Shown: piece after piece, positions 26,228-51,870 of the stretch
How the letters are laid out: each line of letters starts with the position of its first letter
Position numbering within the stretch: the first letter of the stretch is position 1
Virus record (IMG/VR): IMGVR_UViG_3300032167_000006
DNA from: a virus
Lineage: Duplodnaviria > Caudoviricetes
Reading direction: 5' to 3' (one strand)
DNA length: 64,000 nt
Made by a program: the position numbers and the translations under genes
The notes under the pieces: generated by a model
Seen by the model: only the letters and a program-made list of their open reading frames with translations
Databases searched by the model: none
Told to the model about the DNA's origin: nothing

Positions 26228-26404
26228 ATGTCAGATATTACACGCGGTGTTTTAGGTCAAACTATCGATGGTGTTGTAGAATACTTCTATCCTAAGACTG
26301 AAGCCGATTTGGTTGAATGTAAAGATGGTAAAAATGTAGAAGAAAAAATAGAAGAATTGGAGTCAAAAATTAAGGAATTAGAAGAGAGAATACAAGCTCT
26401 CTAA
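26228..26404 (+). CDS. small fibre adaptor (PKT motif plus coiled coil)
   Basis: ATG 26228 after GGAGG; YFYPKTEADLV; own late motif. Confidence 0.65.
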   Translation: MSDITRGVLGQTIDGVVEYFYPKTEADLVECKDGKNVEEKIEELESKIKELEERIQAL

Positions 26405-26417
26405 TCCGATAATTTTG

Positions 26418-26430
26418 AACAAAATAGTAA
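26418..26430 (+). promoter_or_regulatory. late-promoter motif
   Basis: AACAAAATAGTAA upstream of 26458. Confidence 0.6.
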
Positions 26431-26457
26431 ATCATTTTATATTGGGAGGTAGTATAT

Positions 26458-26733
26458 TTGGAAACTAAAAAGGTTATATTAAATAAAAAAATAGACGGTA
26501 CTAGATATAGAATTCTCCCCAAGACAAGTGCTGATATTGTTACTTTTGATGATGAAATGTCTGTTAAAGAAAAAATTTTATCTATGGAAGATAATATGGT
26601 ATCTGTTGAATATGTTACTGAAACTATTGATAAAGCAGTAGAAAAATCAGTAGAAGAAACCGTAACAGAAACAATAGAAAAGACAGTAACTGATACAATA
26701 GAAGCAACGGTTTTTGATGGGGGTGAAATTTAA
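26458..26733 (+). CDS. small fibre adaptor (PKT motif; C-terminal FDGG)
   Basis: TTG start after GGAGG; ILPKTSADIV; late motif. Confidence 0.65.
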   Translation: METKKVILNKKIDGTRYRILPKTSADIVTFDDEMSVKEKILSMEDNMVSVEYVTETIDKAVEKSVEETVTETIEKTVTDTIEATVFDGGEI

Positions 26734-26736
26734 AAC

Positions 26737-27096
26737 ATGGCCGATATTAGATTTAAAAGAGGTACCGAACAAAGATGGCGTGAGCTTAATCTTTTATTAG
26801 AGAATGGCGAGCCTGGATTTGAATATGATACCGGTAAACTAAAAATAGGCGATGGTGTTCATAGATGGTTAGAGTTAGAATATGTAGGTTCACATGCTAC
26901 AAGCAATATTGAATTTATTGAAAAATATGACGACCTTCCCAGAATTGGAACAGCTAATAAACTTTATGCTGTTGCTGAAGATAAATTAATTTATTTATGG
27001 AATACTACATCGCTTAAATATGAATCTTTTGGTAGTTCGGGATCTTTTGATCCCTCTATAATATCAAATATAAATGGAGGTACAGCAAATGGCTGA
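26737..27096 (+). CDS. Mtd_N-like fibre adaptor
   Basis: IRFKRGT..W..LLENGEPGFEYDTGKLKIGDG..W..LEY, the major tropism determinant/hyaluronidase N-terminal motif. Confidence 0.75.
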   Translation: MADIRFKRGTEQRWRELNLLLENGEPGFEYDTGKLKIGDGVHRWLELEYVGSHATSNIEFIEKYDDLPRIGTANKLYAVAEDKLIYLWNTTSLKYESFGSSGSFDPSIISNINGGTANG

Positions 27097-28435
27097 AATT
27101 AATACTAGTATTCAACTTCGTCATGATACTACAGAAAATTGGGAAACCAATAAGTCTAAGGTTCTTAAAGATGGCGAGGCTGGTGTTGAATTCCAAGAGT
27201 CAGGTAAAGTGGCTCTTAAAATTGGTCGCGATGGAAAAACATGGGATGAGCTTGATTATTTTGCAAGTGCCAACCCTGCTAAAGTATATCAGGTTGAGCT
27301 TGGTGAAAACGAGCTTGATATTGATGGTATTGAGCGTGTTGTTAATGGCGCAGAGCTTCAGTCAGGCGATTTAGCTATTGTTATGTCTGGTATCGCTGGT
27401 TCTGCTAAATCATATACTTCATACGTATATGATGGTGCTAACTGGACAGCTACAGATGGTAACTACAGCGCTGATAATGTTTATTTCAAAGATGACCTTA
27501 CTGTAACTGCTGCTATTGGTACAGTTACTGCAGATGATATTTCTGATGGTAATGGCTCATACACACTTTCTGCAGGTGGTAAGAACATTGCTCAGGTTTT
27601 AGGTTCTCTCTTAGCTGAAGCTAAAGATCCTGATGTTGATCTTCCTTCAGTAACATTATCTGCATCTGGTGGTAGTGGTGAGGTTGGTACATCATATACT
27701 CTTCCCACAGCTACACTTAAAGTAGATGATGTAGGTAGTTATACTTATGGTTCTAAAGATGCTGCTGGTACTAAATATGGTGCTTTAGATACAGGTGTTG
27801 TTTTCGCTACAGGCGATATGACACTTTCTATTGGTGATAAGTCAGTATCTAATGAATCTGATTTAACAACTGACGGTAAAATTACTATTACTGCTGAGGA
27901 TACAGCTTCTCTTTATACAGATACAGCTAAGTCTTATACATTTAAGGCTACTGCAGAATATACTGCTAGCGCAGATAGAGTTCCTGTAAATAACCTTGGT
28001 GATAAAGTTGAGTCTAAAAAGATTGGTGATGGATCTGTTACTATTGATGATAAGAAAGTAACATTCACTGGTTGGAGAAAAATGTTCATGGGCACTCTCA
28101 CTGATACCAGTGCAGCATTAACTTCTGATGTGATTAGAGGTTTATCACTTGTTAGCAAACAGGCATCTAAGACAGCTCAGACTTTCACTGTTCCTGTTGG
28201 TGCTAAAAAGATTGTTGTTGCATTCCCGAATTCATTCTCTACTAAAGAGCCTGGTTTTGAATACTTTACAATGTCTTGGGAAGGTTTCTCTGGCTTCGTT
28301 TCTGCTGGTACTGTACAGGTTGCAGATGCTCGTGGCGGTGAGAATGGTTTAACTGCATACAACGTTTATACATTTACACATGCAAGTGCAACTGGTTTTG
28401 AGGCTGATACTCAATTCCGTGTTACACTTAAGTAA
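27089..28435 (+). CDS. Mtd_N-like fibre protein with C-terminal beta domain
   Basis: start at ATG 27089; IQLRHDT..NW...LKDGE.G....LKIG.DG..W.ELDY. Confidence 0.7.
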   Translation: MAEINTSIQLRHDTTENWETNKSKVLKDGEAGVEFQESGKVALKIGRDGKTWDELDYFASANPAKVYQVELGENELDIDGIERVVNGAELQSGDLAIVMSGIAGSAKSYTSYVYDGANWTATDGNYSADNVYFKDDLTVTAAIGTVTADDISDGNGSYTLSAGGKNIAQVLGSLLAEAKDPDVDLPSVTLSASGGSGEVGTSYTLPTATLKVDDVGSYTYGSKDAAGTKYGALDTGVVFATGDMTLSIGDKSVSNESDLTTDGKITITAEDTASLYTDTAKSYTFKATAEYTASADRVPVNNLGDKVESKKIGDGSVTIDDKKVTFTGWRKMFMGTLTDTSAALTSDVIRGLSLVSKQASKTAQTFTVPVGAKKIVVAFPNSFSTKEPGFEYFTMSWEGFSGFVSAGTVQVADARGGENGLTAYNVYTFTHASATGFEADTQFRVTLK

Positions 28436-28453
28436 TAAAGGAGGTAATGATTA

Positions 28454-30790
28454 ATGGCTAAGAAATATGGTGAAAACTCTACAGTAGATTTTGCTGCTGG
28501 AAACTTAATGTCATTTGGTAAATCATTTTCAAGACTTAGCGGTCAGCCTCTTGACAAATCTGAAATTTGGTATAATGACCTTGAAGCTCTTAGAGCATAC
28601 GCTCTTACAGATGCTGCATTCGTAGGTCAGAAAGTTGTTTATATTGATACAACTGCTAGCACTGTAACTCATTACAGCATTGAGCTTGATGGTTCTCTTA
28701 AAGAGATTGGTGTTAAGCCACTTGGCGATGCTGCATCAATTACAGTTAGTGAGGCCGGTGTTGTTAGTCTTAAGAATTTTGGTGTTGAGTATTATAGACT
28801 TCTTACTAGTGATGAGGAAGGTTATAAAGAAGGCGAAGCAACTTATGTTCTTCAGACTGTAGACGCTGATCATCCTTGGAAGAGTGGTCTTGTTCCGAGA
28901 GTACTTGATGGTGCTATCGCTTGGTATGAGCCTTCTAACGTAACTGTTGAGGGTCTTAATGATACAGTAGGTTCATTACAGACTTCAGTAGATGCTAATG
29001 AGCAGGCTATTGGTGCTCTTGAAACTGTAGTTGGCGATGCTACTTCTGGTCTTGTAAAAGAAGTTGCTGATAATAAGGCTGCTTTTGATGCTTTTGCTGA
29101 AGAGCATACTTACACTGATGATGATATCGATGCTAAAGTAGCTGGCGCTTTCCACTTCCGTGGTGATGCTGAGCTTGAAGTTGGCGAAGATGAAGCTTGG
29201 ACAGGTAATCTTGTTAAAGATGGAGCTGTAATTGCTTCTCCTATAAATGGCGATGTATATCAGGTTGGCGAAGTAGAGTACGCTTATGATGGTTCTAAGT
29301 GGGTTAAGCTTGGTTTTACTCTTGATCTTACAGGTTATGCTACAAAGATTGAGCTTAATACTGCTAAGGAAGATCTCCAGGGTCAGGTAGATGATTTAGT
29401 AGATGCTGATGAGGCTCTTGCTGAAAAAGATACTGAGCTTGAAGGTTTAATTGGCGGTCTTCGTACAGATGTTGATGCTATCAATAATGAGACTTCTGGT
29501 GCTGTTGCAACTGCTAAGGCTTATACAGATGATGAAATCTCTAAACTTAATGTAAGTCAGTATGCAACAACTGAGGCTCTTGGTGAGACTAATGAAGCTG
29601 TAGCTGCTAATACTGGCTTGATTACAGAGCATAAGACTCTTCTTGATACAGTTAAGGCTACTGCAGATGCTGCTGCTACACAGACAGTTGTTAATGCTAT
29701 AGATGAGAGACTTAAGACAGCTGAAGCTGGTGTTAGTACAAATGCTGGTAATATTACTACCAATACTAATGCTATTTCTGCTCTTCAGACATCACAGGCT
29801 ACTCAGGATACAGCTATCGAGAAGAATAAGACAGACCTTGCCGATTTAACAAAAACTGTTGGTACAAACACATCAGATATATCTGGCATTAAAGGACAGA
29901 TTACTTCTATTTCAGAAGCATCTAGTAAGAATACTTCAGATCTTGCTGCTCTTACAACTAGAGTAGATACAGCTGAAGGTACTATTGCTGGACATACAAC
30001 AAGTATTGGCGATAATGCTACTGCTATAGCAGGTAATAAATCACTTATTGATGCTCTTACACCTAGAGTTACTGCTGTAGAGGGTAAAGTTACAACTCTT
30101 GAGTCTGATAATACAACTAATAAATCTGCTATCTCTGCTCTTCAGGGCTTAGTTGGTGTTAAGGCTGAAGGTGAAACTGCTGCTACTGGTCTTCATAAGG
30201 CTGTAGATGATTTGGCTGCTGTTGTTGATACTAAAGCTAACACTAACGATGTATATAGCAAGACTGCCGCAGATGAAGCTATTGCTGCTGCTGTAGCTGC
30301 TGTAGATCATCTTAAGAGAAAGATTGTTGAAGCTCTCCCTGAAGTTGCTTCTGCTGATGCTAATACCATTTACATGGTTAAAGATGCTGATGCTAAGGGT
30401 GATGATAAGTATAAGGAATACATGGTTATTGATGGTGCATTTGCTTGCATTGGCGATACAACTGTAGACCTTACAAATTACGTTCAGAAAGATGATACAA
30501 CTTATACAACAGCTCTTCAGGATATTACTAATCTTAAGAATGTAGGTTCTCAGGCTAACGTACTTGAAGCTGTAAAAGTTAATGGTATAGCTCTTGAGAT
30601 AACTGATAAGGCTGTTAACATCGGTATTGCTACAGATACTGTTCTTGGTGTTGTTCTTAGCAGCACTGCAGATAATAAAGTTTCTGTTGGTGCTGACGGT
30701 ACAATGGAAGTTAATAAATTAAATGTAAATAAGCTTGTTCAGACTGAAGGCGAAGAGCTTATTCTCTTTGGCGGTACTTCTGCTAACTAA
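28454..30790 (+). CDS. long coiled-coil fibre protein
   Basis: N-terminal QPLD motif; long Ala/Thr heptad runs; VEALP..ADANTIYMV; QANVLEAVKVNG. Confidence 0.7.
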   Translation: MAKKYGENSTVDFAAGNLMSFGKSFSRLSGQPLDKSEIWYNDLEALRAYALTDAAFVGQKVVYIDTTASTVTHYSIELDGSLKEIGVKPLGDAASITVSEAGVVSLKNFGVEYYRLLTSDEEGYKEGEATYVLQTVDADHPWKSGLVPRVLDGAIAWYEPSNVTVEGLNDTVGSLQTSVDANEQAIGALETVVGDATSGLVKEVADNKAAFDAFAEEHTYTDDDIDAKVAGAFHFRGDAELEVGEDEAWTGNLVKDGAVIASPINGDVYQVGEVEYAYDGSKWVKLGFTLDLTGYATKIELNTAKEDLQGQVDDLVDADEALAEKDTELEGLIGGLRTDVDAINNETSGAVATAKAYTDDEISKLNVSQYATTEALGETNEAVAANTGLITEHKTLLDTVKATADAAATQTVVNAIDERLKTAEAGVSTNAGNITTNTNAISALQTSQATQDTAIEKNKTDLADLTKTVGTNTSDISGIKGQITSISEASSKNTSDLAALTTRVDTAEGTIAGHTTSIGDNATAIAGNKSLIDALTPRVTAVEGKVTTLESDNTTNKSAISALQGLVGVKAEGETAATGLHKAVDDLAAVVDTKANTNDVYSKTAADEAIAAAVAAVDHLKRKIVEALPEVASADANTIYMVKDADAKGDDKYKEYMVIDGAFACIGDTTVDLTNYVQKDDTTYTTALQDITNLKNVGSQANVLEAVKVNGIALEITDKAVNIGIATDTVLGVVLSSTADNKVSVGADGTMEVNKLNVNKLVQTEGEELILFGGTSAN

Positions 30791-30801
30791 TTAAAATAAA
30801 T

Positions 30802-30833
30802 TATAGAGAGGGTAAATAAATACCCTCTCTATA
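30802..30833 (+). terminator. intra-operon stem-loop
   Basis: TATAGAGAGGGTA-aataaa-TACCCTCTCTATA. Confidence 0.65.
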
Positions 30834-30878: not shown

Positions 30879-32408
30879 ATGGCTGAAAAGAAATTAAATA
30901 CACGCATAGCCCTTAAAATTGATACACTTGAAGCGTGGGAGTCTTCCTCTTTACCTCTTAAGAAAGGCGAGGTTGCTCTTGCAACAACAACTCATGGTTC
31001 AAAGAATATAGTTCTTATGAAGGTTGCTGACACTGAAGGTCAGGTTTGGTCAGCTATTCCGGATTTCGTTTATGCTAGAGCTGCTGATGTTCTTGATGTA
31101 TGTAAAGATGCTAACGATCTTACCGCATTTATCAATAACCTTATCAATGCTGCTAACTTTACAGATAATGATGCATTCAAAGCACTTGAGCAGGATGTTT
31201 CAGATAATGCTGATGCTATTGAAGTTCTCAATGGCACTGTAGATACTGCAGGTTCTGTTGCTAAAGCTATCAAGGATGCTATCGATGCTCTTGATCTTGC
31301 TAACACATATGCTGCTAAAGAGCATGATCATGTAGTTGCTGATATTACTGATTTTGATACTGCAGTAAAAGCTTATGGTTATGCTTTAGATTCAGAACTT
31401 GATGCGGTTGCTGAGGATCTTGGTGAGGAAGTAACTCGTGCTACACAGGCTGAAGAGGCTCTTGCTGGTCGTGTTAAGACTTTAGAAGATTCTAAAGATG
31501 CATATGTTGCTGCTGATACTGCTCTTAAGACAGAGCTTGCAGCTAGCATCAAATCTACAGATGACAAGATTACTGCATTCTTAAAGGATGCTGATATGAC
31601 TGAGAAAGCTGTAGATACATTAGCAGAACTTCAGAATTATATTACAACTCATGGCAATGAAGCATCAGGCATGCTTGAAGATATTGCGGCTAACACCAAA
31701 GCTATTGGCGATGAAGTAACACGTGCTACAGGTGCTGAAGAAGCTCTTGCTGGTCGTGTTAAGACTTTAGAAGATCATAAAGATGATTATGTTGGTGCTG
31801 ACACTGCTCTTAAATCAGAACTCGAAGGTAAAATCAATGCAATTGATAACCACTCACATGAGAACAAGACAGTTCTTGATGGTATTACAGCTGAGAAAGT
31901 TTCAGCTTGGGATGCTGCTGAGAAGAATGCAAAAGATTATGCTGATGGTCTTGCAGATAATTACGATGCTGCTGGTTCAGCTGCTGATGCTCTTCAGGAT
32001 GCAAAAGACTACGCAGATGGTCTTGCTGGTAACTACGATGCTGCTGGTTCAGCTGCTGATGCTCTCGCTGATGCTAAAGAGTACGCTGATGGTTTAAAGA
32101 CAACTATCGATGCTGCTTATGCTGCTGCTGATACAGCTACACTTAACAGTGCTAAAGCTTATGCTGATGGTCTTGCTGGCAATTATGATGCTGCTGGTTC
32201 GGCTGCTGATGCACTTCAGGATGCAAAAGACTACGCTGACGGTCTTGCTGGCAACTATGCTACAGCTGCACAGGGTACTAAGGCTGACACTGCACTTCAG
32301 AAGATTGAAACAACTGCTAATGGTGGTCTCGTTGTAACTAATAATAATAAGATTGATATCGACGATACTGTTACATTCGTATTTGATTGTGGTAATGCTA
32401 CCGTTTAA
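30879..32408 (+). CDS. Mtd_N-like coiled-coil fibre protein with tandem repeats
   Basis: NTRIALKIDT..W...LKKGEVA; HDHVVADITDF; AKDYADGL repeats; ATAAQGTKADTALQ. Confidence 0.7.
   Translation: MAEKKLNTRIALKIDTLEAWESSSLPLKKGEVALATTTHGSKNIVLMKVADTEGQVWSAIPDFVYARAADVLDVCKDANDLTAFINNLINAANFTDNDAFKALEQDVSDNADAIEVLNGTVDTAGSVAKAIKDAIDALDLANTYAAKEHDHVVADITDFDTAVKAYGYALDSELDAVAEDLGEEVTRATQAEEALAGRVKTLEDSKDAYVAADTALKTELAASIKSTDDKITAFLKDADMTEKAVDTLAELQNYITTHGNEASGMLEDIAANTKAIGDEVTRATGAEEALAGRVKTLEDHKDDYVGADTALKSELEGKINAIDNHSHENKTVLDGITAEKVSAWDAAEKNAKDYADGLADNYDAAGSAADALQDAKDYADGLAGNYDAAGSAADALADAKEYADGLKTTIDAAYAAADTATLNSAKAYADGLAGNYDAAGSAADALQDAKDYADGLAGNYATAAQGTKADTALQKIETTANGGLVVTNNNKIDIDDTVTFVFDCGNATV
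31428..31815 (+). repeat. duplicated ~100-bp coding segment (EVTRATxAEEALAGRVKTLED)
   Basis: copies start at about 31428 and 31713. Confidence 0.8.
31929..32262 (+). repeat. coding tandem repeat, ~72-bp unit (AKDYADGLAGNYDAAGSAADALQD)
   Basis: near-identical DNA copies; five AKxYADGL cores. Confidence 0.85.
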
Positions 32409-32546: not shown

Positions 32547-32783
32547 ATGAAAAAAATAAAAGTCCGTATGAGCCAAAAACATGACACCGAAGCTAATTGG
32601 TTAAAGGTGCCTACATTTATCCCTTCAGATGGAGAACTAATAATATACGACCCAGATGATAAAAATAAATATCCAAGAATGAAAGTTGGAGATAATAAGA
32701 CTACTATAGTAAATCTTCCATTTATATCTGGTGCGGGTGAAATACTCTATAATGAAGATGGCGAAAAAATATTTCTAATGTAA
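32547..32783 (+). CDS. stand-alone Mtd_N-like mini-protein
   Basis: QKHDTEANW...FIP..GELIIYD...KVGD...LPF. Confidence 0.7.
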   Translation: MKKIKVRMSQKHDTEANWLKVPTFIPSDGELIIYDPDDKNKYPRMKVGDNKTTIVNLPFISGAGEILYNEDGEKIFLM

Positions 32784-32884: not shown

Positions 32885-33280
32885 TTACTTTAATTCAGAA
32901 TATAAATCTATTAGGATTTCTTTAAATCCATTAGCATATACAGTAATTTTTGGTTCAATATAAACGCTATAATCGTTTATTTCAATTATTTTTTTCATTG
33001 AGCTAAATATAGTGTATGAATTAGAGTTGTTATTATTTATAATATTATAACAAATAATATTTAAATTATTATCATCATCTACTTTATATTCTATTCTTGT
33101 CTCTTTTTCATCATAATCAAATTTTATATTAATTACTATATCAGTATTTAACTCATAAGAGTCTTGTAATGTAATTATAAATTTTGATTCTCTATCATTT
33201 CTAACTACTGCACTTTTTGATAAAATTTTTTTATATTTGTTATCTACGATAACATCACATGATATAGAAGTATGTTCCAT
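32885..33280 (-). CDS. hypothetical protein inserted antisense in the fibre operon
   Basis: AAGGAG RBS; hairpin downstream. Confidence 0.65.
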   Translation of the reverse strand: MEHTSISCDVIVDNKYKKILSKSAVVRNDRESKFIITLQDSYELNTDIVINIKFDYDEKETRIEYKVDDDNNLNIICYNIINNNNSNSYTIFSSMKKIIEINDYSVYIEPKITVYANGFKEILIDLYSELK

Positions 33281-33372: not shown

Positions 33373-33681
33373 ATGGCTGAAAAAACTATTAAAAGTAGAT
33401 CAATACAAAAGCATGATATTGAAGCTAATTGGATCAAAGCCACTAATTTTATACCTAAACAAGGCGAAATTATTGTTTATGATATTGAAGTAGACGCTAA
33501 TGGCAATAATTTGACTTTGCCATCTGGTAGAACTACTCCTTATACATATGAACGTTTTAAAATTGGTGATGGTAAAACTCTTGTAAGTTCATTACCTTTT
33601 GTTATGGAAAGTATCTCAGATGCTGAAATAGATGCTATTTGTGGTGCAACTATTTATGCAGCTAGCGAGGTGATCTTATAA
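33373..33681 (+). CDS. stand-alone Mtd_N-like adaptor
   Basis: QKHDIEANW...FIPKQGEIIVYD...KIGDG...LPF; C-terminal ISDAEIDAIC. Confidence 0.7.
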   Translation: MAEKTIKSRSIQKHDIEANWIKATNFIPKQGEIIVYDIEVDANGNNLTLPSGRTTPYTYERFKIGDGKTLVSSLPFVMESISDAEIDAICGATIYAASEVIL

Positions 33682-40712: not shown

Positions 40713-40728
40713 TAGGAGGTAAAATATA

Positions 40729-42017: not shown

Positions 42018-42784
42018 TGGCTTACGAATATACAAAATTAAGTGAAGTAGAAATACTTGAATCTCCATCATCTCCTAATATTCTTGTTGAGGATAATGGT
42101 GAAATCGTGAGGGTTCCCTCATCTAATTTAACTACATCGGCTGCACAGGTGCAGGCTGACTGGAATGAGACTGACTCTGATAGCCCTGCTTTCATTCTTA
42201 ATAAACCCGATTTAAGTTCATCTGGTGGTTCTGATTCTGGTGTTGAAACTATAAAATATTATTATGCTGGTCAATCAGATATAATAACTGTATATGCCGA
42301 TGCTGATCATACTACAATATTAGATAGCGGAAATCTCTACAATAATTTTATTTCAGGTAAAAGAGTAATACTTATAGGTGAAAGTAGCACTTCAGATGTA
42401 TTATCAGTTAGATATTATCAAACAACTTTTTCATACCACGTATATGCAACAATGTATCAGCCTCATAAAAGTAGAATACTTGATCTTGATCTTGGTTCTA
42501 CTGATATTCCATTGGGACAGATTTCTACTGGTGAAGTAGATACTAATACAGTTATATACACTGGAGATAGTAGTGGTAGTTGCTCATTTAACGGACATTC
42601 GCAAATTAACCTTAGCGATCTGGTAGAAAATATTAATAATAATTCACGTATACTTATTAACTATTCAGATACAAATACAACTTGTAGTGTAATAGCAACT
42701 TATACATTATCAAGCGGAACCTCAGCAAGTATGGTATTATTAGAACCTGGAACTACTAACCTGAAAACTGTTACTATAGAATAA
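42017..42784 (+). CDS. fibre-associated protein
   Basis: QADWNETD..FILNKP; coupled start. Confidence 0.6.
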   Translation: MAYEYTKLSEVEILESPSSPNILVEDNGEIVRVPSSNLTTSAAQVQADWNETDSDSPAFILNKPDLSSSGGSDSGVETIKYYYAGQSDIITVYADADHTTILDSGNLYNNFISGKRVILIGESSTSDVLSVRYYQTTFSYHVYATMYQPHKSRILDLDLGSTDIPLGQISTGEVDTNTVIYTGDSSGSCSFNGHSQINLSDLVENINNNSRILINYSDTNTTCSVIATYTLSSGTSASMVLLEPGTTNLKTVTIE

Positions 42785-42804
42785 TAAAATTGAGGTGATT
42801 TATT

Positions 42805-44129: not shown

Positions 44130-46673
44130 ATGGCTAAATATATTAAAACAGAAGAAGGATATAAGCTAGCCAGTGATTTTATTGGATCTGGCGGCGGTAT
44201 CAAAGAGATTGAATCTGTAAATGATATTACTGATGTAGGTATTTATAAAACTGACAAAGAAGTATATTCTGCTAGTTATGATAAAATAGAATCGTACGTC
44301 CCAGTAGCAAAGGGTTTAACCACAAAGGTTGGATTTAAGATTGAAACATATCCATCATCCTCAACTAGTAATTATATACAGCTTAGAGATTCAAAGTTGG
44401 GTACGGCATGGATTGAAGTAGATGCTAACGGTATCTATATTACTGGAACTACGACATATAACGACGAGGATATGCATTATAGTGTATCAAGCAATAGTGA
44501 GATAACACTTGATTCTACTCCTGTGGATGTTGATGGTGTAATTTATCCATCACTTAAATCTTTAGGTATAATATATTTTGAAGTCATCGATATAACGATG
44601 GAAACAGATGCAGTAGTGCATATGTATGCAACCTCTACGTATTCTGATAGTCTTACTATTAATGAGATTAGAGGTGGTATGGGAATCGAAGGCGACAATT
44701 ATAATTCTGAAATATTCAATGATCATTCAGAAGGAGCAGCCTTTGGCTCTTATGCACATTCAGAGGGTAGAACAACTCAGGCTGGCGCAAGAGCTTTTAG
44801 AGTACAATCTATTGATTATTCCACCAGAACATTTACACTTGATAGCACATCAGGATTGAAAAAAGATATGTATTGGTCTGCTCAAATCTATAATGGTGCA
44901 ACAGCATTAAATGTTAATAGATACAGCAAGATTGAATCTATAAGTGGTAATACTGTTACGGTTGTATCAATGCCTGATAATTTTAATACAACTATTGTAC
45001 CAATAGATGAGGTGCTTGATGGATTTGATAATGAAAATAATATTTTCTTCACTCCAGATAATCCTAAATTGGGAACACGTAATATAGGTTCTGCAGCACA
45101 TTCTGAAGGTAGAAATACAGTAGCAGCTAGAAAAAATGCCCATGCGGAGGGTAATAAGTCAAAAGCCCTTGGACACTCTTCTCATGCTGAAAATACAAGT
45201 ACAGTTTATGGTACTTATGCTCATGGTGAAGGTTCAAGTTATGTATATGGAAACTATGCTCACGGTGAAGGTGTAGATACATATGCTGTTGGTGAAGCAT
45301 CTCATGCTCAAGGAAGAAAAAACATTGCATATAGCTATGACTGCTATGCAGGTGGAGGAAGTTCTGTTGGGTACACACACTTATTAAACAAGGGTCTTAA
45401 TCCAACAGATAAAGATTCATGGACACAATTATGGACTAACGAAGAGCGTGATAGTTTAGAATTATTTAATGCAGCAGTAGGAAATAACTCATTTACTCAA
45501 GGTTCAAATAACTTAGTAACTGGTTTACGTGGTTCAGCCTTAGGTAAACAAAATCATGTTAGCGGTCAGGATGCAGTGGCAGTAGGTAGTTACAATACTG
45601 CAGCTGGTATGCATTCAGGTGCATTTGGTTATTCAAATGAAGTTAATACTGGTGAGTCTTTTGTAATAGGCCACTCTAATATTGTTAAATCGCCTTACAG
45701 ATCTATTGCGATTGGTAATGGTAATGAACTTGTTTCGGCTACAACAGAAGGTACTATTATTCTTGGTCGTTATGGTTCAGACGTAGAACATCCTGAAGCT
45801 ATTTTTCTTATAGGTAATGGTACTGCATCTAAGAAATCTAGTATTTTTGGTATTACTTCTAATAATGGTTTATTTCATGGTCCTGCTACTATAGTTACAG
45901 GACAATATTCTGGTGCATTAGGTTATACCAATAACGTTACAGGTGCACAAGCGTTTGCTATAGGTCATACTAATATAGTAGATCAGCATAAGGGTATTGC
46001 ATTAGGTTTAGGTAATACATTATCTAATGTTGCAGGTGATGTTAGTAGAGCTGTTGTGGGTTATTATAATGATGATACTAACAAACCTTTATTTGCAGTT
46101 GGTAATGGTACTATCACCAAAGATAAAGAAACAGGTGAAATAACTAAATATAATCGTAGTAATGCTTTAGAATTAACTACCGCTGGAGAATTAAAAATTT
46201 CACGTTTGAATTCTGGTACTCATAGCACTAATACTGTATCAGGTACTGGAGTTGGTGTTATTGGCGCAAAAAACAATGTATCTAAAAATTACAGCACTGC
46301 AATAGGATACAATAATAAAATAACCGCAGGAGATACTCATTTTGTAGTTGGACACACAAATCAAATTGTAGCTGGATATAAACACGTAGCTCTTGGATTA
46401 GGAAATAAAATTGGTAACAAGGGAGCCGGAGTACAGGGTAGAGTTGCTGTTGGTCATTGGAATGATGATACTAATCAACCTATATTTGCAGTAGGTAATG
46501 GTACAGGTACTATTGATGTTAATGGCGAAATTACCAGCGAAAATCGCAGTAATGCCTTTGCAGTATTTGATGATGGTACCATTAAAGCTCATAAAAATGC
46601 TACAGTAGATTTAGAAATAACTTATACAGATGGAACAAAATCCACATACCATTTAGTGAAGTCGGAGGTGTAA
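44130..46673 (+). CDS. YadA-head-like beta-roll tail fibre/adhesin
   Basis: AHSEG/SHAEG repeats, A.G..N repeats, FAVGNG...RSNA modules. Confidence 0.75.
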   Translation: MAKYIKTEEGYKLASDFIGSGGGIKEIESVNDITDVGIYKTDKEVYSASYDKIESYVPVAKGLTTKVGFKIETYPSSSTSNYIQLRDSKLGTAWIEVDANGIYITGTTTYNDEDMHYSVSSNSEITLDSTPVDVDGVIYPSLKSLGIIYFEVIDITMETDAVVHMYATSTYSDSLTINEIRGGMGIEGDNYNSEIFNDHSEGAAFGSYAHSEGRTTQAGARAFRVQSIDYSTRTFTLDSTSGLKKDMYWSAQIYNGATALNVNRYSKIESISGNTVTVVSMPDNFNTTIVPIDEVLDGFDNENNIFFTPDNPKLGTRNIGSAAHSEGRNTVAARKNAHAEGNKSKALGHSSHAENTSTVYGTYAHGEGSSYVYGNYAHGEGVDTYAVGEASHAQGRKNIAYSYDCYAGGGSSVGYTHLLNKGLNPTDKDSWTQLWTNEERDSLELFNAAVGNNSFTQGSNNLVTGLRGSALGKQNHVSGQDAVAVGSYNTAAGMHSGAFGYSNEVNTGESFVIGHSNIVKSPYRSIAIGNGNELVSATTEGTIILGRYGSDVEHPEAIFLIGNGTASKKSSIFGITSNNGLFHGPATIVTGQYSGALGYTNNVTGAQAFAIGHTNIVDQHKGIALGLGNTLSNVAGDVSRAVVGYYNDDTNKPLFAVGNGTITKDKETGEITKYNRSNALELTTAGELKISRLNSGTHSTNTVSGTGVGVIGAKNNVSKNYSTAIGYNNKITAGDTHFVVGHTNQIVAGYKHVALGLGNKIGNKGAGVQGRVAVGHWNDDTNQPIFAVGNGTGTIDVNGEITSENRSNAFAVFDDGTIKAHKNATVDLEITYTDGTKSTYHLVKSEV

Positions 46674-46679
46674 TAGCCT

Positions 46680-48419
46680 ATGGCGCATGCTTATCCTAAG
46701 AGTTATCTAGAATATGGTACGAGCACCACTTTCATGCCAGACGATAGTTATGACTATATTGATTTTAAAATTGAAATTGATGATTTTTCATATAATTGTG
46801 GAAGCGGTAGTGGTGGTACTATTTATGTAACACCTAATGTTTATGTAGAAGAACTTGGTAGTGGAATTTGTATTAATAATTTTAATTCTAAAAGAGAGCA
46901 AACGGTAATAAATTTTACAGCTTATCGTAATGGATCACATCTAAAGTCTATGACGATAACTCTGGCTGCAAATCCAGATGGTTATTTAGATGAAGACTTT
47001 TCTTTATATGATACAAGTATAGATTATTTAAATACTAAAAGTATTTTTTATTTAAATAATACAGATATTTCTTTAAGTAAATTAGAAATTAAATTTGTTG
47101 ATAGATTTACTAATGTATTAAGCAGCGGAAATGGTGTAATATATGAAGATGAAGACTTTACTGTTGAAAATGCAACTGGAAAGACTTTAGAAGTTACTAA
47201 TAGAAATGAATCAACTCAAGATAAAAATATAACTGTAGAGCTTTATTATTATAGTGACAATGGTAAAATTCTAATAAATACAGCGACTTTAACATTGTCT
47301 GCTAATCAAAGTGGTAATGAACCATCAAATCCTTCTGATCCGTCAGATCCTTCTAACATATCAAGTGTTTTATTTGGTGGTAAAGATTTAACTAACGCAT
47401 TATCTTTAAAACTTAATAATAAATCTGTAGCTAGTATTAAATTAGGCGGAGTTGTAATTTGGCCTTTAGTAAATACCAATTATGTAGCATCATTTTATAA
47501 AATAGAAACATATGGTGCTTCTAGTTCATATAATGAAACTACTAAAACTCTGTCACTTATATATGGAGAATCAACTATTAAAATTTATTTCAGTGGTAAC
47601 TTACCAGAATATAATAGCATAAATTCAATATCGGATTTCTGTACAATTACTGCTTCGCCTTCTAATTTACTTAATCATATTGAATTTATACCTGAAGAAA
47701 CCAATTGTTATAATATTTTAAATTATAATACTACTATAGATGATATATCTGGTACTTTATATTTCAACTTCAATCATCCAGATTACGAACCAAATATTTT
47801 AAGTTTAAATATAGTTGCAAAAGCAAGAACCCTAGTTAAAATATCTAAACCTACTTTAACCCGCTCAGATATATTTGAATACACAGGAAGCGTTATAAAT
47901 ATTGCCGATTATTATTCTGAAGAGGTTAAGAATACAGTGGATATAACTGGAAGATGTGAAGGAACCAGTCCAGGCGGTTATACTTACTATATAACACCAA
48001 AGGATGGTTATTGTTGGGAAGATGGTAGTACATCCCCAATAACGCAGTCTTTTGTAATACAAGAACCACATTATAATTATACTTTAACCTACGTACTTAA
48101 TGATAACAGTGCAGACTTCTATTGGGATACTAATGATCCAAATCCTGGAACACCAGAAATATCAGCTTCCTTAGTAAGTGATTTTGATGTTTGGGATATA
48201 GGCTCAGCTGATATACAAGTTAATGGAAACTATGTAATGGCTTACAAATCAAGTGATGCTTGGGTGGAAGATGATTATGGTTCAGGCGCTTTAGATACTC
48301 CAAGCGGTCATTATAATACAGATCCAATGTATAATGTAGGAATTGAAGTGCGTGCAACTGATCCGAATGGAGGATCTCATGCAGAAACTATCTATTTAAC
48401 TGCATATAGCACAAGATAG
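46680..48419 (+). CDS. multi-domain beta-rich adhesin-like protein
   Basis: PSNPSDPSDPS linker; YTG...G.Y...ITPKDGYCWEDGS Ig-like module. Confidence 0.55.
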   Translation: MAHAYPKSYLEYGTSTTFMPDDSYDYIDFKIEIDDFSYNCGSGSGGTIYVTPNVYVEELGSGICINNFNSKREQTVINFTAYRNGSHLKSMTITLAANPDGYLDEDFSLYDTSIDYLNTKSIFYLNNTDISLSKLEIKFVDRFTNVLSSGNGVIYEDEDFTVENATGKTLEVTNRNESTQDKNITVELYYYSDNGKILINTATLTLSANQSGNEPSNPSDPSDPSNISSVLFGGKDLTNALSLKLNNKSVASIKLGGVVIWPLVNTNYVASFYKIETYGASSSYNETTKTLSLIYGESTIKIYFSGNLPEYNSINSISDFCTITASPSNLLNHIEFIPEETNCYNILNYNTTIDDISGTLYFNFNHPDYEPNILSLNIVAKARTLVKISKPTLTRSDIFEYTGSVINIADYYSEEVKNTVDITGRCEGTSPGGYTYYITPKDGYCWEDGSTSPITQSFVIQEPHYNYTLTYVLNDNSADFYWDTNDPNPGTPEISASLVSDFDVWDIGSADIQVNGNYVMAYKSSDAWVEDDYGSGALDTPSGHYNTDPMYNVGIEVRATDPNGGSHAETIYLTAYSTR

Positions 48420-48429
48420 ATTAATTAAT

Positions 48430-48464
48430 ATACTAAGATGGGTAATTTAAACCCATCTTAGTAT
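48430..48464 (+). terminator. intra-operon stem-loop
   Basis: ATACTAAGATGGGT-aatttaa-ACCCATCTTAGTAT. Confidence 0.65.
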
Positions 48465-48495
48465 TATAAAAATATATAAAGGAGGTCTTTATACA

Positions 48496-51400
48496 ATGGG
48501 AATATTAAAAGTTAAAGATAAAGATGGAAATATAGTAAATCTTCCTGCAATTGGTAGTTCTATTAGTCATAAATGGAATGGTACAAAATTAACAGTGACT
48601 TCTAGTAGTGGCACAACAACTACTGATCTTCAAGGCGCACCTGGTAAAAATGGTAATGATTATGTTATAACTAGTGCTGATAAAGAAGAAATAGCTGGTA
48701 TGGTTCAACGTTCGGTTGAAGAAGGAATTCCTAGTTATATTTTAGAATCAGCAGAAGATTTTGCTCATAAAGTACAAAGCAGACAAAGTGGAGATAGCTT
48801 TACTTTTGCGTTTTTAAGTGATGCACATATAACAAAAAGTAGACCATATACTATTACATCTGCTTTGCATGCAAAACAAGCTTTACAAATAATCAATAAG
48901 CGCATACCTTTAGATTTTATTATACATGGTGGCGATTATACTTGGGGAGAGGATTCCGAAGATAAAAATACAACCTATGATGATTTTGAATTATATCAAG
49001 AATTAATTGGTTCAGCCATACCAAATGTGCCAAATATTCATGTTATTGGTAATCATGATGATTTACCATATCAGCCAACAGGAAAAAGATTAACACAATC
49101 AGAAACTTTTGGTATTATCGGAAGAAAAAATTTATTAGCAAATGCCGTTTGTAATATGGGTAAAAACTATGGTTATGTAGATATAGATAATAGAAAAATA
49201 AGAATTATATATCTTGACACAGAAGATAAAAGATGTTTAAAAACCCCAGATGCTGCCAATGGAGAACATCCGGACAATAAATATTATTTTTTAAATATAC
49301 ATCATATATCTAAAGAACAGCTTGATTTTATAGCATCTAATGCATTAAATTTTGAAAGTAAGCTTCCTATTAAACCAGATGAAACAGATACAGAAGCAAC
49401 AAAAAAATGGGATGAAGAATGCAAAAAAGAATTAGATAAATGGAGCATACTTTTTGTTTCGCATTGGGGTATAAATGGCCATGGGTATGATTGGTGGAAA
49501 TATCCAAGAATTGGTACAAATGCAGATGGTAATCCTATATATGATGATTTTAGATGTAATATAGGTACAATCGGTAAAATGTTAGAAGCATATAAAAGAG
49601 GTAAAAGCTTTAAAGATGATATAGAACACATGAATGATGATGGTACATCTACATTAAAAAGTGCATCTTATGATTTTAGTGATAGAATTTATAGGGTACA
49701 AAATATTTTTGCCGCACATGGTGATTCACATAATATTGATCATGAATTAATAACAGGTGAAGTATTATCTATTGGTATTCCTAATGTTGTAAATGGTAGA
49801 GAAACTGTTAGTAGGGATGGAGTTAAATATACCAAAACTGCAGATACTGAAAATGGTACAGCATTTACTATTATTACTATAGATAGAGAAAATCAAAAAG
49901 TTTATGCTGATTGTTATGGCGCTGGCTATGATATGGAATTTAATAGTAATAGCATATTAGATATGGCCGGTATAATGAAAGATAAATATTTAGCATATCC
50001 ATGGAATGATGTAGTGCAAGAAGATGGATCAATTAAAAAAGTTACACGTGTTGATATATATGATAAACCAGGATATAAAACTACTAATTATATACCTTTC
50101 CAACCTGGTGATGTTTTAAGAATTAAAGGTATTTCTATTAAAGACGATCTTGATAGAATTAATTTTTATAAATCTTATAACACTGCAAGTGTTAATGCAC
50201 CAATATCGCATGTTACTGGACCAAATAGTTTAAAAAATCAGTTTTTTGAAGTAACTATTAGTGAGGATGGATATTCTTGCGAAATTCTATTATCAAATTC
50301 AGATAGTAGTTTTAAAAATAATGCACGCTATTTACGTATATGCTCTAGCGATATTAAAGATGATGCCATTATCACAATAAATAAAGAAATTACAGGATCT
50401 GAAGTTCCAGAAATTCCTGAAGACTCAACTACTGAAGAGCCTGAAAATCCTACTCCAGATGATACTAATACTATTTACTATACTACAGAAGGTATGCTTA
50501 GTAAGAGCAAAAATATTGGTTATATAAAGGGTTATTATTTAGGTGAAGGCGGTGGAGATGCTGATGCTCAATTAGCAATACCAGAAAATAATGCAACTTA
50601 TTATGTAACTGGTTTTATTCCTTGCGTACAAAATGATGTATTGAGAATTAAAGGTATTACTTTTGATGATGCTTTAGATAGAATAGCTTTATATGGTAAA
50701 GATACAGATGGTAATTATATACCACTAAAACGTAGTTCTGGAGAGTATGATGCTATTTTTGCTCTTAATAAAGATGAAAATGATAACTATATAGATAATG
50801 GATTATTTAACACTTATAGTATTACTCCAAACGTAGAGAATGATATTATTACTATTGCTTTTAATGCGCCTACAGATATAGCAGCTGTACGTATTTGTGC
50901 AAGTTTAATTAATAATAATTCTACCGTAACTATCAATGAAAATATTGGTATAACTTATTATACCGAAGAAGGTATACTCAGTAAGAGTAACAATATAGGT
51001 TATAAACAAGGATATAGATTAGTAGATACTAAAGCTGGAAACCCTGAAGATTATGTAGATACTAATTATTTTGTAACAGGCTATATTCCTGTATCAAAAG
51101 GTGATAGTATTGTAATCAAGGGCATTAGTTTTAGCTCAGCTAATGATAGACTTGTTTGTTATACAGAAGAAAATGGTACTTATACTCGTCTTACTAGAAC
51201 TTCAGATGGAAAAACTGTAGATGTTATTCTTCAGGCAAATGACTCTAATGGTATAGCAAGACACTTCGGTACAATGAAAACTGAAACTATTGACGGTGCT
51301 TCAGTTATAACTATACGCGTCACAGAAGGTAGCGAAGCTACTTCTAAGGGAGTAGAGTATATTCGTATTTGTTCATCAAGCATTAATAATACTTCTGTTA

Positions 51401-51870
51401 TTACAGTTGCCCAGCCTCCTGTTCTTTATACCAACGAAGGTATACTTAGTGAGAGCAATAATATTGGATATAAATATGGTTATACGTTAGTTAATACTAA
51501 AAATAATAGCAATGATGAAGATTATATAGATGATACTCATTATATAACAGGTTATATCCCTTGTGTGAAAGGTAATACTATAACACTCAAAAATATTAGT
51601 TTCAGTGAATCTAGTGAAAGAATAGTTTGTTATACAGAAGAAAATGGCGTTTATACTCGTCTTTCACGTAGTACTGAATCTGATGCTATTATTTACGCAA
51701 ATGATGATGGTGCTATAACAGGACATCTTGGTACTATTAGCAGAGATATAGATAATAATACTGTAACTATAAATGTTACAGGTGGTACAAATGGAACAAC
51801 TAATTCAGTAGAGTATATCCGTATCTGCTCAAAGGATATTAATGAAAATTCTATTATAACTATTAATTAA
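48496..51870 (+). CDS. fibre-anchored calcineurin-like metallophosphoesterase with four C-terminal repeats
   Basis: FLSDAH, HGGDY, IGNHDD; N-terminal ILKVK/HKWNGTKL/GAPGKNG fibre motifs. Confidence 0.75.
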   Translation: MGILKVKDKDGNIVNLPAIGSSISHKWNGTKLTVTSSSGTTTTDLQGAPGKNGNDYVITSADKEEIAGMVQRSVEEGIPSYILESAEDFAHKVQSRQSGDSFTFAFLSDAHITKSRPYTITSALHAKQALQIINKRIPLDFIIHGGDYTWGEDSEDKNTTYDDFELYQELIGSAIPNVPNIHVIGNHDDLPYQPTGKRLTQSETFGIIGRKNLLANAVCNMGKNYGYVDIDNRKIRIIYLDTEDKRCLKTPDAANGEHPDNKYYFLNIHHISKEQLDFIASNALNFESKLPIKPDETDTEATKKWDEECKKELDKWSILFVSHWGINGHGYDWWKYPRIGTNADGNPIYDDFRCNIGTIGKMLEAYKRGKSFKDDIEHMNDDGTSTLKSASYDFSDRIYRVQNIFAAHGDSHNIDHELITGEVLSIGIPNVVNGRETVSRDGVKYTKTADTENGTAFTIITIDRENQKVYADCYGAGYDMEFNSNSILDMAGIMKDKYLAYPWNDVVQEDGSIKKVTRVDIYDKPGYKTTNYIPFQPGDVLRIKGISIKDDLDRINFYKSYNTASVNAPISHVTGPNSLKNQFFEVTISEDGYSCEILLSNSDSSFKNNARYLRICSSDIKDDAIITINKEITGSEVPEIPEDSTTEEPENPTPDDTNTIYYTTEGMLSKSKNIGYIKGYYLGEGGGDADAQLAIPENNATYYVTGFIPCVQNDVLRIKGITFDDALDRIALYGKDTDGNYIPLKRSSGEYDAIFALNKDENDNYIDNGLFNTYSITPNVENDIITIAFNAPTDIAAVRICASLINNNSTVTINENIGITYYTEEGILSKSNNIGYKQGYRLVDTKAGNPEDYVDTNYFVTGYIPVSKGDSIVIKGISFSSANDRLVCYTEENGTYTRLTRTSDGKTVDVILQANDSNGIARHFGTMKTETIDGASVITIRVTEGSEATSKGVEYIRICSSSINNTSVITVAQPPVLYTNEGILSESNNIGYKYGYTLVNTKNNSNDEDYIDDTHYITGYIPCVKGNTITLKNISFSESSERIVCYTEENGVYTRLSRSTESDAIIYANDDGAITGHLGTISRDIDNNTVTINVTGGTNGTTNSVEYIRICSKDINENSIITIN
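49950..51867 (+). repeat. four ~150-aa domain repeats
   Basis: recurring [YF]IP, IKGIxF..DR and RICxSxI..ITI blocks; boundaries approximate. Confidence 0.75.

Follow-up and report, generated by a model that had tools for sequence, protein, structure and literature searches.

Paired terminal modules in a phage gene cluster suggest a candidate segmented receptor-binding fibre

Introduction

The long tail fibre of phage T4 is built from gp34, gp35, gp36 and gp37, which assemble end to end. In the TP901-1 and Tuc2009 baseplates, the C-terminal part of BppU grips the receptor-binding trimer that follows (BppL) by its N-terminus, much like the joint proposed here; the sole basis of that comparison is the first gene of a chain in one metagenomic contig (L007), which combines a weak BppU_N match with the tryptophan tail described below, and the window contains no BppU or BppL homologues. 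A third arrangement is described in three reports (PMC13352976, PMC6872550, PMC11414711): in Klebsiella phages KP32, K11 and KP34 and in Ackermannviridae tailspike complexes, a short conserved peptide on one protein and a dedicated domain on another allow a virion to carry several receptor-binding proteins. In these systems the second protein bears the peptide at its N-terminus, and the peptide binds to a side domain of the first protein, producing a branch.

The stretch analyzed here (the window) is 64,000 nucleotides of a 259-kb tailed phage (IMG/VR record IMGVR_UViG_3300032167_000006). Judged from its sequence, a gene cluster in the window is probably (at roughly 0.65) a receptor-binding fibre kit in which separate proteins are joined end to end via conserved terminal modules. 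Unlike in the branched complexes, the putative docking peptide would lie at the C-terminus and would engage the following protein by its N-terminal cap, giving a serial joint. No sequence relation to the branched complexes was seen; none of the 24 cluster proteins had a Pfam match to gp10-like or branching domains, and a PHROGs search covering g1 to g12 only gave no match either.

Results

Layout of the cluster

An earlier note on this DNA had described about 20 fibre-like genes, many of them short. The cluster was found to comprise 24 plus-strand genes within 26228-51870, ten of which encode 160 amino acids or fewer (g1, 58; g2, 91; g3, 119; g7, 78; g9, 102; g12, 77; g13, 130; g14, 64; g16, 83; g19, 156). 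Nearly all 24 begin with ATG behind an AGGAGG-type ribosome-binding site, TAA is the stop codon in 20, and no tRNA genes were found within the window. On these grounds they are separate genes, and neither stop-codon recoding nor read-through was retained as an explanation for the short open reading frames.

The first gene, g1 (26228..26404), encodes a famA N-terminal module (..DG....YPKT.AD.V; famA HMM E = 7e-29), which recurs in g2 and g15, and a short coiled coil; its tail shows none of the recognised motifs. In g2 (26458..26733) a famA head is followed by a short stalk and a GG plug (..TVFDGGEI). A minimal socket-plus-plug adaptor is encoded by g3 (26737..27096), with an Mtd_N head, a small beta part and the plug ..SNINGGTANG. 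The 448-aa g4 protein (27089..28435) has a head of the Mtd_N class and, at its C-terminus, a conserved beta-sandwich that ends in ..TQFRVTLK; g5 (28454..30790; 778 aa) carries a PLD head (residues 1-90), a long variable coiled coil and the plug ..LILFGGTSAN; and g6 (30879..32408; 509 aa) has an Mtd_N-class head, a coiled stalk and the plug ..FVFDCGNATV. An Mtd_N-class head of the g7/g9 sub-type begins g7 (32547..32783), which ends in ..DGEKIFLM. A 131-aa minus-strand open reading frame (32885..33280) lies within the cluster, and an equal-sized minus-strand gene occupies the equivalent position in L004, the nearest relative. The distal adaptor g9 (33373..33681), again with an Mtd_N-class head, is translationally coupled to g10 (33681..35945; 754 aa), a BspA-type leucine-rich repeat (LRR) protein (Pfam LRR_5, 5.9e-47) and probably the receptor-binding tip. 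Equivalents of g9 stand upstream of variable heads in L002, L006, L011, L012 and L013.

The effector domains named in the earlier note were recovered with Pfam: BspA LRR_5 in g10, CBM_5_12 in g13, CotH in g22, YadA_head in g23 and Metallophos in g25. Pfam also identified two GT2 glycosyltransferases, g11 and g20. Genes g11, g12 and g13 span 35984..37586, and the g12-g13 cassette is found downstream of LRR genes in L006 and L011 as well. The g14 product (37632..37826) has a KGLSTxDFT repeat and shares the ..DG...FLM tail with g7 (here ..DGQSVFLM); the next protein, g15 (37861..38736; 291 aa), has a famA head and a beta-rich C-terminus. Genes g16 (ending ..ITYDDGTVKQIKVLGAEV) and g17 (278 aa) are translationally coupled at 38755..39842. 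They are followed by g18 (278 aa; DWNETD..NKP motif, end ..YTFNY) and g19 (divergent PLD-like head) at 39876..41199, by g20, g21 (255 aa; DWNETD..NKP motif) and the CotH kinase-like g22 at 41220..44115 (Pfam, BLAST), and by g23 (847 aa; YadA-head-like repeats, end ..ITYTDGT..SEV) and g24 (579 aa) at 44130..48419. The last gene, g25 (48496..51870; 1124 aa), starts with 'ILKVK', as does g16, and carries a calcineurin-like phosphoesterase domain.

GG tails precede Mtd_N-class heads

Four successions of a DGG-type C-terminus by an Mtd_N-type N-terminus had been claimed, and all four were found: the tails of g2, g3, g5 and g6 precede the Mtd_N-class heads of g3, g4, g6 and g7. The GG tail was defined as a C-terminal [LIVMF]-x-[GCD]-G plus 1-10 residues, and belongs to no described family as far as the searches reached. 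Mtd_N (PF18454) was recognised by Pfam in g3 (42.2 bits against a gathering cut-off of 26.3, E = 7.6e-11); g4 (18.4) and g9 (16.7) score below that cut-off and g6 and g7 have no Pfam match, these four being assigned to the class by BLAST (g4-g6, 5e-6; g7-g9, 6e-18) and a window-built HMM. When gene order was shuffled within the window, four GG-to-Mtd_N adjacencies were reached in 43 of 200,000 shuffles and all six cognate adjacencies in 2 of 200,000.

A junction census, in which heads were classified with HMMs trained on window sequences only, covered the window and 10 contigs of 28-43% GC, and then L028. In the first set, a GG tail was followed by an Mtd_N-class head at 25 junctions and two GG tails were unpartnered, alongside 94 other-to-other junctions; L028 added four, for a total of 29 (window plus 11 other metagenomic contigs). 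These are not independent events, because many of the counts stem from one inherited g2-g7 block. Within the window there is one exception, in which an FLM tail and a 589-nt gap precede g9.

Distant cultured phages were examined too, and 10 of 15 junctions, from 8 of 12 lineages, obeyed the rule. The ten are those of Streptococcus Javan477 and Javan146 (from the tail endopeptidase, Tal, to HylP), Gordonia Catfish, Arthrobacter Qui (twice) and Persistence, a TM7 phage, Microbacterium Musetta, crAss001 (gp24 to gp25) and Cellulophaga phi13:1 (gp023 to gp024). Both phi13:1 proteins are flagged as MS-verified virion proteins in the record of that phage. Exceptions include the acidic tails that precede cyanophage Mtd_N fibres and the lysin B gene that precedes the fibre gene in Gordonia Hanem. 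No solved structure of a tail-head joint was found, the Mtd_N head matching isolated HylP structures only. The literature searched contained no description of the GG tail-Mtd_N pairing; its coverage was incomplete, so this is no proof of novelty.

A tryptophan tail and its head switch together

Some relatives have a different tail, ..L-T-W-x-[DE]-[ML].., in place of GG, and in these the next gene has a KF-type head in place of Mtd_N. The tryptophan tail was followed by a KF-type head at 7 of 8 junctions (window plus 10 contigs). PLD proteins end in a GG tail in about 122 cases and in a tryptophan tail in about 37; in all four tryptophan-tail contexts of PLD proteins the next head was of KF type, and a quick tree placed the four in separate tryptophan-tail clades. 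Both systems are present in one genome, L013, each correctly paired. Comparison thus supports joint switching of tail class and next-head class, and cognate pairing at class level is found over 12 independent contigs and in many cultured phages.

The earlier note had proposed that the pairs are orthogonal. Among the four GG joints this was not borne out. A sub-type code drawn from the syntenic block (DGGEI to g3-type, I[NH]GG to g4-type, LNGG to g6-type and FDCG to g7/g9-type heads) was contradicted by L028, in which a ..LDCGG.. tail lies upstream of a g6-type head and a ..FNCG.. tail upstream of a g3-type head. The four GG joints of one phage thus look interchangeable, and the motif alone cannot set the order.

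This lack of sub-type specificity is what would be expected if the tails were folding or trimerisation caps, or chaperone handles, and each Mtd_N, KF, PLD or famA head attached its own protein to the baseplate or to one scaffold; adjacency would then reflect only inheritance and tandem duplication of a gene block. Genes g2 to g7 are consecutive and have indeed been passed on as a unit, in the same order, in seven other contigs (L002, L004, L006, L011, L012, L013 and L028), and one report gives attachment of fibres to the tail by the N-terminus as the rule (PMC12143355). Evidence against attachment to a common hub comes from the co-switching of tails and next heads in several PLD clades and inside L013, and from a rule that holds in unrelated lineages with non-paralogous upstream genes (encoding a tail endopeptidase, a pectate-lyase protein or a C-type-lectin protein). 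The common hub is also at odds with L004, in which g2 and g3 are one 257-aa protein (7865-8638; also in a second assembly, L005) with the tail motif placed directly before the head: ..IIVDGGEI, a 13-aa linker and the Mtd_N domain. The earlier note had named fusion of paired motifs as a check on docking. Attachment to a common hub is an improbable alternative to end-to-end joining.

The beta-sandwich, PLD and remaining modules

A g4-type end was followed by a PLD head in 11 of 11 cases (window plus 10 contigs), or 12 of 12 with L028. Of the two beta-domain-to-PLD successions claimed earlier, g4 to g5 stands and g18 to g19 is only plausible: that pair also occurs in L004 (14388-17120), with its order kept, but no similarity could be detected between g4 and g18 in their C-terminal domains. 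The last 140 residues of g4 were modelled by AF2 with a pLDDT of 85. Foldseek returned no relative at E <= 0.001 and the best VIA-align hit was beta-2-microglobulin (Z 5.5, rmsd 2.8, 76 residues); as modelled, the domain has a generic Ig-like sandwich fold, for which no informative relative emerged.

The PLD head forms 951 clusters at 50% identity and starts at residue 1 in 150 of 150 representatives (the best 150 of the 951 clusters), and tblastn found no match to it in 50,697 cultured-phage genomes. PLD heads and g4-type terminal sandwiches are two large unnamed families. Neither fused beta-sandwich-PLD nor PLD-to-Mtd_N forms were found among the best 150 representatives or 197 PLD proteins. 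In the monomer model, confidence is lowest (pLDDT 41-50) over an invariant PLD stretch, NLMSFGKSFSRL.GQPLDKSE, which fits the expectation for a segment that becomes ordered on a partner.

A third pairing, of an ITYxDGT tail with a 'KSxA..IW' head, had been claimed twice. The C-termini of g16 and g23 are alike (E = 4e-4), but the N-termini of g17 and g24 are dissimilar, and a common socket on these two proteins was ruled out; one half of this pairing is thus supported. Any docking roles of the FLM and ITYxDGT tails and of the famA head are putative.

Conservation and relatives

Megablast and blastn gave no match for the region in cultured phages, and IMG/VR scans returned one contig only. Among the metagenomic relatives (29-43% GC), amino-acid identity is 71-76% and third codon positions, at 44-49% identical, are near saturation, which implies selection at the protein level. 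The ends are conserved and the stalks are variable: for g5, identity is 63-90% in the head, about 20% in the stalk and 34-54% over the final 80 residues. A probable DGR was seen in L002 only; the cluster proteins had no Pfam match to reverse transcriptase or lectin. The neighbouring lysins bear SLH and CW_7 domains, which points to a probable host among the low-GC Firmicutes that have an S-layer.

Near-saturated third positions next to conserved protein, and motifs spanning only 5-8 codons, argue against the conserved ends being DNA-level homology boxes for swapping fibre cassettes whose products make no contact. Module shuffling is nevertheless evident: a 113-aa gene in L004 is a g6 head plus an FLM tail, L027 keeps the g15-g16-g17 order and the first ~75 residues of g17 with the remainder of g17 replaced, and g9-g14 looks like a block inserted between g7 and g15. 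Such shuffling is equally predicted by docking, and recombination linkers are a very unlikely explanation. Least likely of all, and barely credible, is that the small genes are decaying or read-through pieces of longer fibre genes: g2 and g3 share a frame 3 nt apart (TAA-AAC between them) and are a single gene in L004, but they are split, each with its own start and ribosome-binding site, in L002, L006, L013 and L028 (gaps of 15, 2, -1 and 15 nt, in differing relative frames), every piece is conserved at the protein level, and TAA is the general stop of this genome.

Discussion

The reading preferred here is that each fibre would be built of several separately translated, presumably trimeric proteins, which would link up head to tail, in the order of their genes, by means of conserved modules at their ends, with the T4 long tail fibre as the model. 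In the first joint, a strand-like C-terminal tail (hydrophobic-x-[G/C/D]-G plus 1-10 residues) would meet a small Mtd_N/HylP-type N-terminal cap; in the second, the Ig-like beta-sandwich ending g4 would meet the ~90-aa PLD head of g5; and in a third, in related phages, the tryptophan tail would meet a KF-type N-terminal cap. The chain would run g2 > g3 > g4 > g5 > g6 > (g7 or g9-g10), giving a long, mostly coiled-coil fibre with the LRR head as its tip, and further proteins may contribute lectin-like or enzyme domains (CBM, YadA-like, CotH, phosphoesterase). We infer the contact of paired ends, the trimeric state and the assembly order from sequence.

Whether such modules (GG/Mtd_N, tryptophan/KF, beta-sandwich/PLD and perhaps FLM/famA) make up a docking code that operates at class level across tailed phages in general is doubtful. 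Under such a code, fibre order and branching would be readable from gene ends alone, and because sockets outnumber plugs here (five Mtd_N heads to four GG tails, three famA heads to two FLM tails), the phage could assemble alternative or branched tips bearing LRR, lectin-like, kinase-like or phosphoesterase heads. Should the paired ends prove to be true joints, sequence would suffice to predict the order in which multi-gene fibres assemble. Unannotated fibres of this kind occur in many phage groups, among them gut phages, crAss-like phages, actinobacteriophages and streptococcal prophages, and an adaptor role could then be assigned to short 'hypothetical' genes beside fibre genes. Plug and socket modules might also be used to swap receptor-binding heads in phage engineering.

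The Mtd_N/HylP cap, known from Mtd of Bordetella phage BPP-1, is shared with g3, which scores above the Pfam cut-off for it. The g3 protein matches the N-terminal 87 residues of the HylP structures 2YVV and 2C3F, and the gene upstream of hylP in Streptococcus prophages ends in ..QIILDGGNQ. Unlike HylP and Mtd, g3 consists of cap and plug only, with neither a catalytic beta-helix nor a C-type lectin. It was rejected as a phage hyaluronidase because its alignment to 2YVV is confined to HylP residues 9-93; it has 119 residues and no triple-stranded beta-helix body.

The proposed resemblance to the T4 long tail fibre lies in separate fibre proteins whose gene order is their joining order, and the N-terminus of gp37 (..IQFKRSK..LAEGELAIN..) is a weak match to the Mtd_N-class profile (E = 0.011). 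In contrast to the present phage, gp36 ends in ..QDFGYY without a GG tail, and the PLD head and g4-type sandwich are absent from T4. T4 has a single fibre with four parts; the phage described here has six or more parts in series, plus several more fibre proteins, and its cluster is a candidate variant of T4-like segmented fibres.

Organization of the fibre cluster

One contig (258,973 bp, about 29% GC) contains the whole window. The 24 plus-strand genes of the fibre cluster (26228-51870; numbered within g1-g25) are flanked on one side by a thymidylate-synthase-like gene transcribed away from them (25225-26106, minus strand) and on the other by two lysins with the Pfam domains M23+SLH (51918-52904) and Amidase_3+CW_7 (52977-53831). 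Nearly all 24 have an AGGAGG-type ribosome-binding site 6-10 nt 5' of the ATG, 20 of them stop at TAA, and a tRNA search of the 64-kb window found none. Stop-codon recoding was therefore ruled out as the source of the short ORFs, which are ordinary separate genes. Hairpin and T-run terminators are present in the g5-g6, g6-g7 and g24-g25 intergenic gaps. A 131-aa minus-strand ORF (32885-33280) is embedded in the cluster, and L004, a related metagenomic contig, has a minus-strand gene of equal size and position (13286-13681).

The domains called in the earlier note were borne out by Pfam: Mtd_N in g3, BspA-type LRR in g10, CBM_5_12 in g13, CotH in g22, YadA-head repeats in g23 and a calcineurin-like phosphoesterase in g25. 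Two further proteins, g11 and g20, are GT2 glycosyltransferases. The small g12 and the CBM_5_12 protein g13 form a cassette (36961-37586) that also follows LRR genes in contig L006 (4543-5234), and a g12-like gene comes after the LRR gene of L011 (18698-18961); the cassette may help to assemble the LRR head.

Pairing of tails and heads in the window

Head (N-terminal) classes were obtained from all-against-all BLAST and HMMs built from window sequences only. Mtd_N-class heads begin g3, g4, g6, g7 and g9, famA heads (..DG....YPKT.AD.V) begin g1, g2 and g15, and the PLD head (MAK.YG...NLMSFGKSFSRL.GQPLDKSE..) begins g5 and, in a diverged form, g19; the motif DWNETD..NKP is found in g18 and g21. 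The GG tail ([LIVMF]-x-[GCD]-G plus 1-10 residues) ends g2, g3, g5 and g6, a beta domain finishing in ..TQFRVTLK ends g4, ..DG...FLM ends g7 and g14, and ..ITY.DGT......EV ends g16 and g23.

It had been claimed that a GG tail is followed four times by an Mtd_N head, and this proved correct: an Mtd_N-class head comes next after 4 of 4 GG tails in the window. These four adjacencies arose in 43 of 200,000 random gene orders, and all six (adding g4 to g5 and g14 to g15) were reached in 2 of 200,000. The strict GG-tail pattern occurred in 8 of 869 six-frame ORFs of the genome, four of the eight being fibre genes. The claimed ITYxDGT pair held on one side, the g16 and g23 tails being alike (E 4e-4), and failed on the other, where the N-termini of g17 and g24 show no similarity. 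As the window pairs were defined on the data on which they were tested, the real test lies in other genomes.

Junctions in other genomes

Nucleotide and translated searches of cultured phages found no close relative of the fibre region. The PLD head (28454-28723) had 65 near-length homologues in a set of 5.8 billion proteins and 951 clusters at 50% identity by profile search; it matched no Pfam family, and tblastn against 50,697 cultured phage genomes gave no match. Together with the proteins P0001-P0197 it is a large unnamed family. In all of the best 150 of the 951 clusters the domain starts at residue 1-20, and PLD is therefore an obligate N-terminal module.

Eleven independent contexts were available (L002, L004, L006-L013 and L028; 28-43% GC, on contigs of 47 to 260 kb). 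For the count of junctions in the window and ten contigs, the window-only HMMs assigned the heads and fixed regular expressions the tails. A GG tail led to Mtd_N at 25 junctions, with two more GG tails lacking an Mtd_N partner; the g4-type end led to PLD at 11 of 11, a Trp tail to the alternative KF-type cap at 7 of 8, and 94 junctions joined other to other. L028 contributed four extra GG to Mtd_N junctions and one beta to PLD.

The same contigs gave several side observations. TAG encodes Gln in late genes of L008, L010, L011 and L028, all of which have the fibre block, and not in the window's phage. The 74-kb IMG/VR contig L002, which shares the fibre block, has a probable diversity-generating retroelement (3655-8253) made up of an RT-like ORF (6973-8253) and, at 765 aa, a protein with a variable-region-like C-terminus rich in N/Y codons. 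A 564-aa CHAP-domain protein in the L006 fibre cluster (5264-6958) has a weak intein-splicing Pfam match. A further conserved junction joins a tail ..LG.AILG..VLA to the start MIITLMGADFSASNIGTLS.WRI (L006 13936-15987; L012 12920-16373), the L012 protein with this start being LamG-like.

Among full-length PLD proteins, about 122 of 177 have a GG tail and about 37 of 177 a Trp tail (..RLTWQDMGV, ..ILTWKDL). Each of the four Trp-tail contexts (L007-L010) has, at the start of the following gene, a different, KF-type cap (V-x-F-x-[RK]-G....[YL]..L..D..T-L-Y-F-I..D...[LI]Y.G), and the KF-capped protein itself has a Trp tail followed by another KF-type cap. Trp-tail proteins formed six pure clades in a quick tree of PLD heads, with L007-L010 in four of the six; deep supports were weak, so the independent Trp/GG switches number between two and six. 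The SPbeta-like contig L013 has both systems, correctly paired, with a protein ending ..NYVWEDE before a KF head and then one ending ..HMDGGVIT before an Mtd_N head. Judged from these sequences, tail class and next-head class switch together, which is more than inherited gene order.

In distant cultured phages the GG rule was kept at 10 of 15 junctions and in 8 of 12 lineages, with an upstream gene that is not a paralogue. The tail endopeptidase of Streptococcus Javan477 and Javan146 ends in ..QIILDGGNQ before HylP. Other cases are Gordonia Catfish gp26 (..SVLDGGEL, then gp27), Arthrobacter Qui gp36 (..VVDGGTP, then gp37) and gp37 (..SIDGGTP, then gp38), Arthrobacter Persistence gp30 (..NFDGGSAA, then gp31), a TM7 phage (..TTIDGGSV) and Microbacterium Musetta (..NLDGGTP), each before the next gene, Cellulophaga phi13:1 gp023 (..YNLDGGNSNS, then gp024) and crAss001 gp24 (..INCGGADAFLT, then gp25); the head of gp24 is famA-like. 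Both phi13:1 proteins are MS/MS-verified virion proteins according to the database record. The exceptions were two cyanophages (acidic tails upstream), Gordonia Hanem (lysin B upstream), Gordonia Orchid (an LVSSGG stretch before the domain within the same protein) and crAss001 gp25 to gp26.

Natural fusion and conservation of the ends

The occurrence of paired motifs fused in one protein, raised in the earlier note, was confirmed for one pair. In L004, the nearest relative (260 kb), and in the independent second assembly L005, g2 and g3 form one 257-aa protein in which a famA head and stalk lead to ..IIVDGGEI and then, after a 13-residue linker, to an Mtd_N domain ending in ..KINGGKANG; the separate g2 and g3 of the window share a frame, with TAA-AAC between them. 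No fused beta-sandwich-PLD joint was found in the best 150 of 951 PLD clusters or in 197 PLD proteins.

Between g5 and its orthologues (500 to 980 aa, with stalks of varying length) identity is 63-90% in the head and 34-54% over the last 80 residues but about 20% in the coiled-coil stalk; g6 likewise has conserved ends and a variable stalk. Amino-acid identity was 71-76%, whereas third codon positions were 44-49% identical, which indicates selection on protein and argues against DNA-level recombination boxes. The terminal domain of g4 was modelled with confidence as an Ig-like sandwich (pLDDT 85). In the PLD head monomer model, pLDDT fell to 41-50 exactly across the invariant stretch NLMSFGKSFSRL.GQPLDKSE, a hint that this segment might become ordered upon a partner. 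Among solved structures, a sequence search for the Mtd_N cap returned isolated HylP structures only.

Limits of specificity

A finer code drawn from the syntenic block (DGGEI to g3-type, I[NH]GG to g4-type, LNGG to g6-type and FDCG to g7/g9-type heads) was contradicted by L028, where a g6-type head comes after ..MILDCGGAAVREY and a g3-type head after ..IVFNCGSASVNI. GG/Mtd_N pairing therefore operates at class level only, and of the proposed orthogonal pairs the class-level cognate joints held by sequence and sub-type specificity among GG joints did not. The four GG joints of the window phage are probably interchangeable as regards motif; either fibre order is set otherwise (by finer contacts, translational coupling or stepwise assembly), or assembly is partly promiscuous.

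Three cases bear on an FLM tail followed by famA. Two agree with it: g14 to g15 in the window and, in L004, a 113-aa to a 192-aa protein with a minus-strand gene in between. The third, g7 to g9, speaks against it but may be secondary, as comparison with L004 suggests that the block g9-g14, which itself ends with an FLM-tail gene, was inserted after g7 and before g15.

Two proteins outside the cluster have related motifs. In a 184-aa protein (11497-12051, plus strand) the head is PLD-like though divergent (..LMSYHRLKKGPLDDSE..; HMM E 1.3e-6), and the gene 5' of it (11000-11407) resembles a small membrane protein, not the g4-type sandwich. A famA-like motif also lies inside a 538-aa protein (8709-10325, minus strand; motif at aa 123-161), whose tail, ..NTISGGDADGTE, is GG-like. 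This match could be due to chance, or the protein could belong to the system on the baseplate side; the gene that follows it on the minus strand (8279-8731) is without an Mtd_N head.

Proposed fibre and known systems

Two pairs, GG to Mtd_N and g4 beta-sandwich to PLD, are solid as sequence associations, the ITYxDGT pair is half supported, and the docking interpretation is partly supported, in that cognate pairing holds at class level. The most likely mechanism is a serially docked fibre in which the order would be g2 > g3 > g4 > g5 > g6 > (g7 or g9-g10), with long coiled-coil spacers in g5 and g6, g3 as a minimal socket-plus-plug adaptor and g9 as a second adaptor, at the distal end, that is coupled to g10 with its LRR head. 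At the distal position of relatives an Mtd_N head bears a body of LamG-like, LRR, CotH or phosphoesterase type, as in a 795-aa Mtd_N+CotH protein (L012 12920-15307) and a 1028-aa Mtd_N+Metallophos protein (L013 18415-21501), so the enzymes of the window cluster are probably displayed on fibres. In the window Mtd_N heads (five) outnumber GG tails (four), and the heads of g7 and g9 are of one sub-type, so that the fibre may have alternative or branched tips. The corresponding slot of L004 (5381-19063) has 12 genes against 24 in the window, implying that the fibre kit is gained and lost in modules.

In the literature covered, which was incomplete, no description of the GG tail-Mtd_N pair, the Trp tail-KF pair or the PLD head was found. 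Searches of the 24 cluster proteins (Pfam; PHROGs for g1-g12) found no gp10-like or branching domains. The window fibre does not appear to be a member of the T4 or the Klebsiella/Ackermannviridae branched families. The proposed docking resembles the way in which the branched receptor-binding complexes of the latter are attached, through a peptide and a domain. In the T4 long tail fibre, proteins join end to end and gene order is assembly order. T4 differs in that gp36 is without the GG tail motif and the gp37 head matches the Mtd_N class weakly, but the correspondence of gene order with assembly order is the likeness that is proposed, from sequence alone, for the window fibre.
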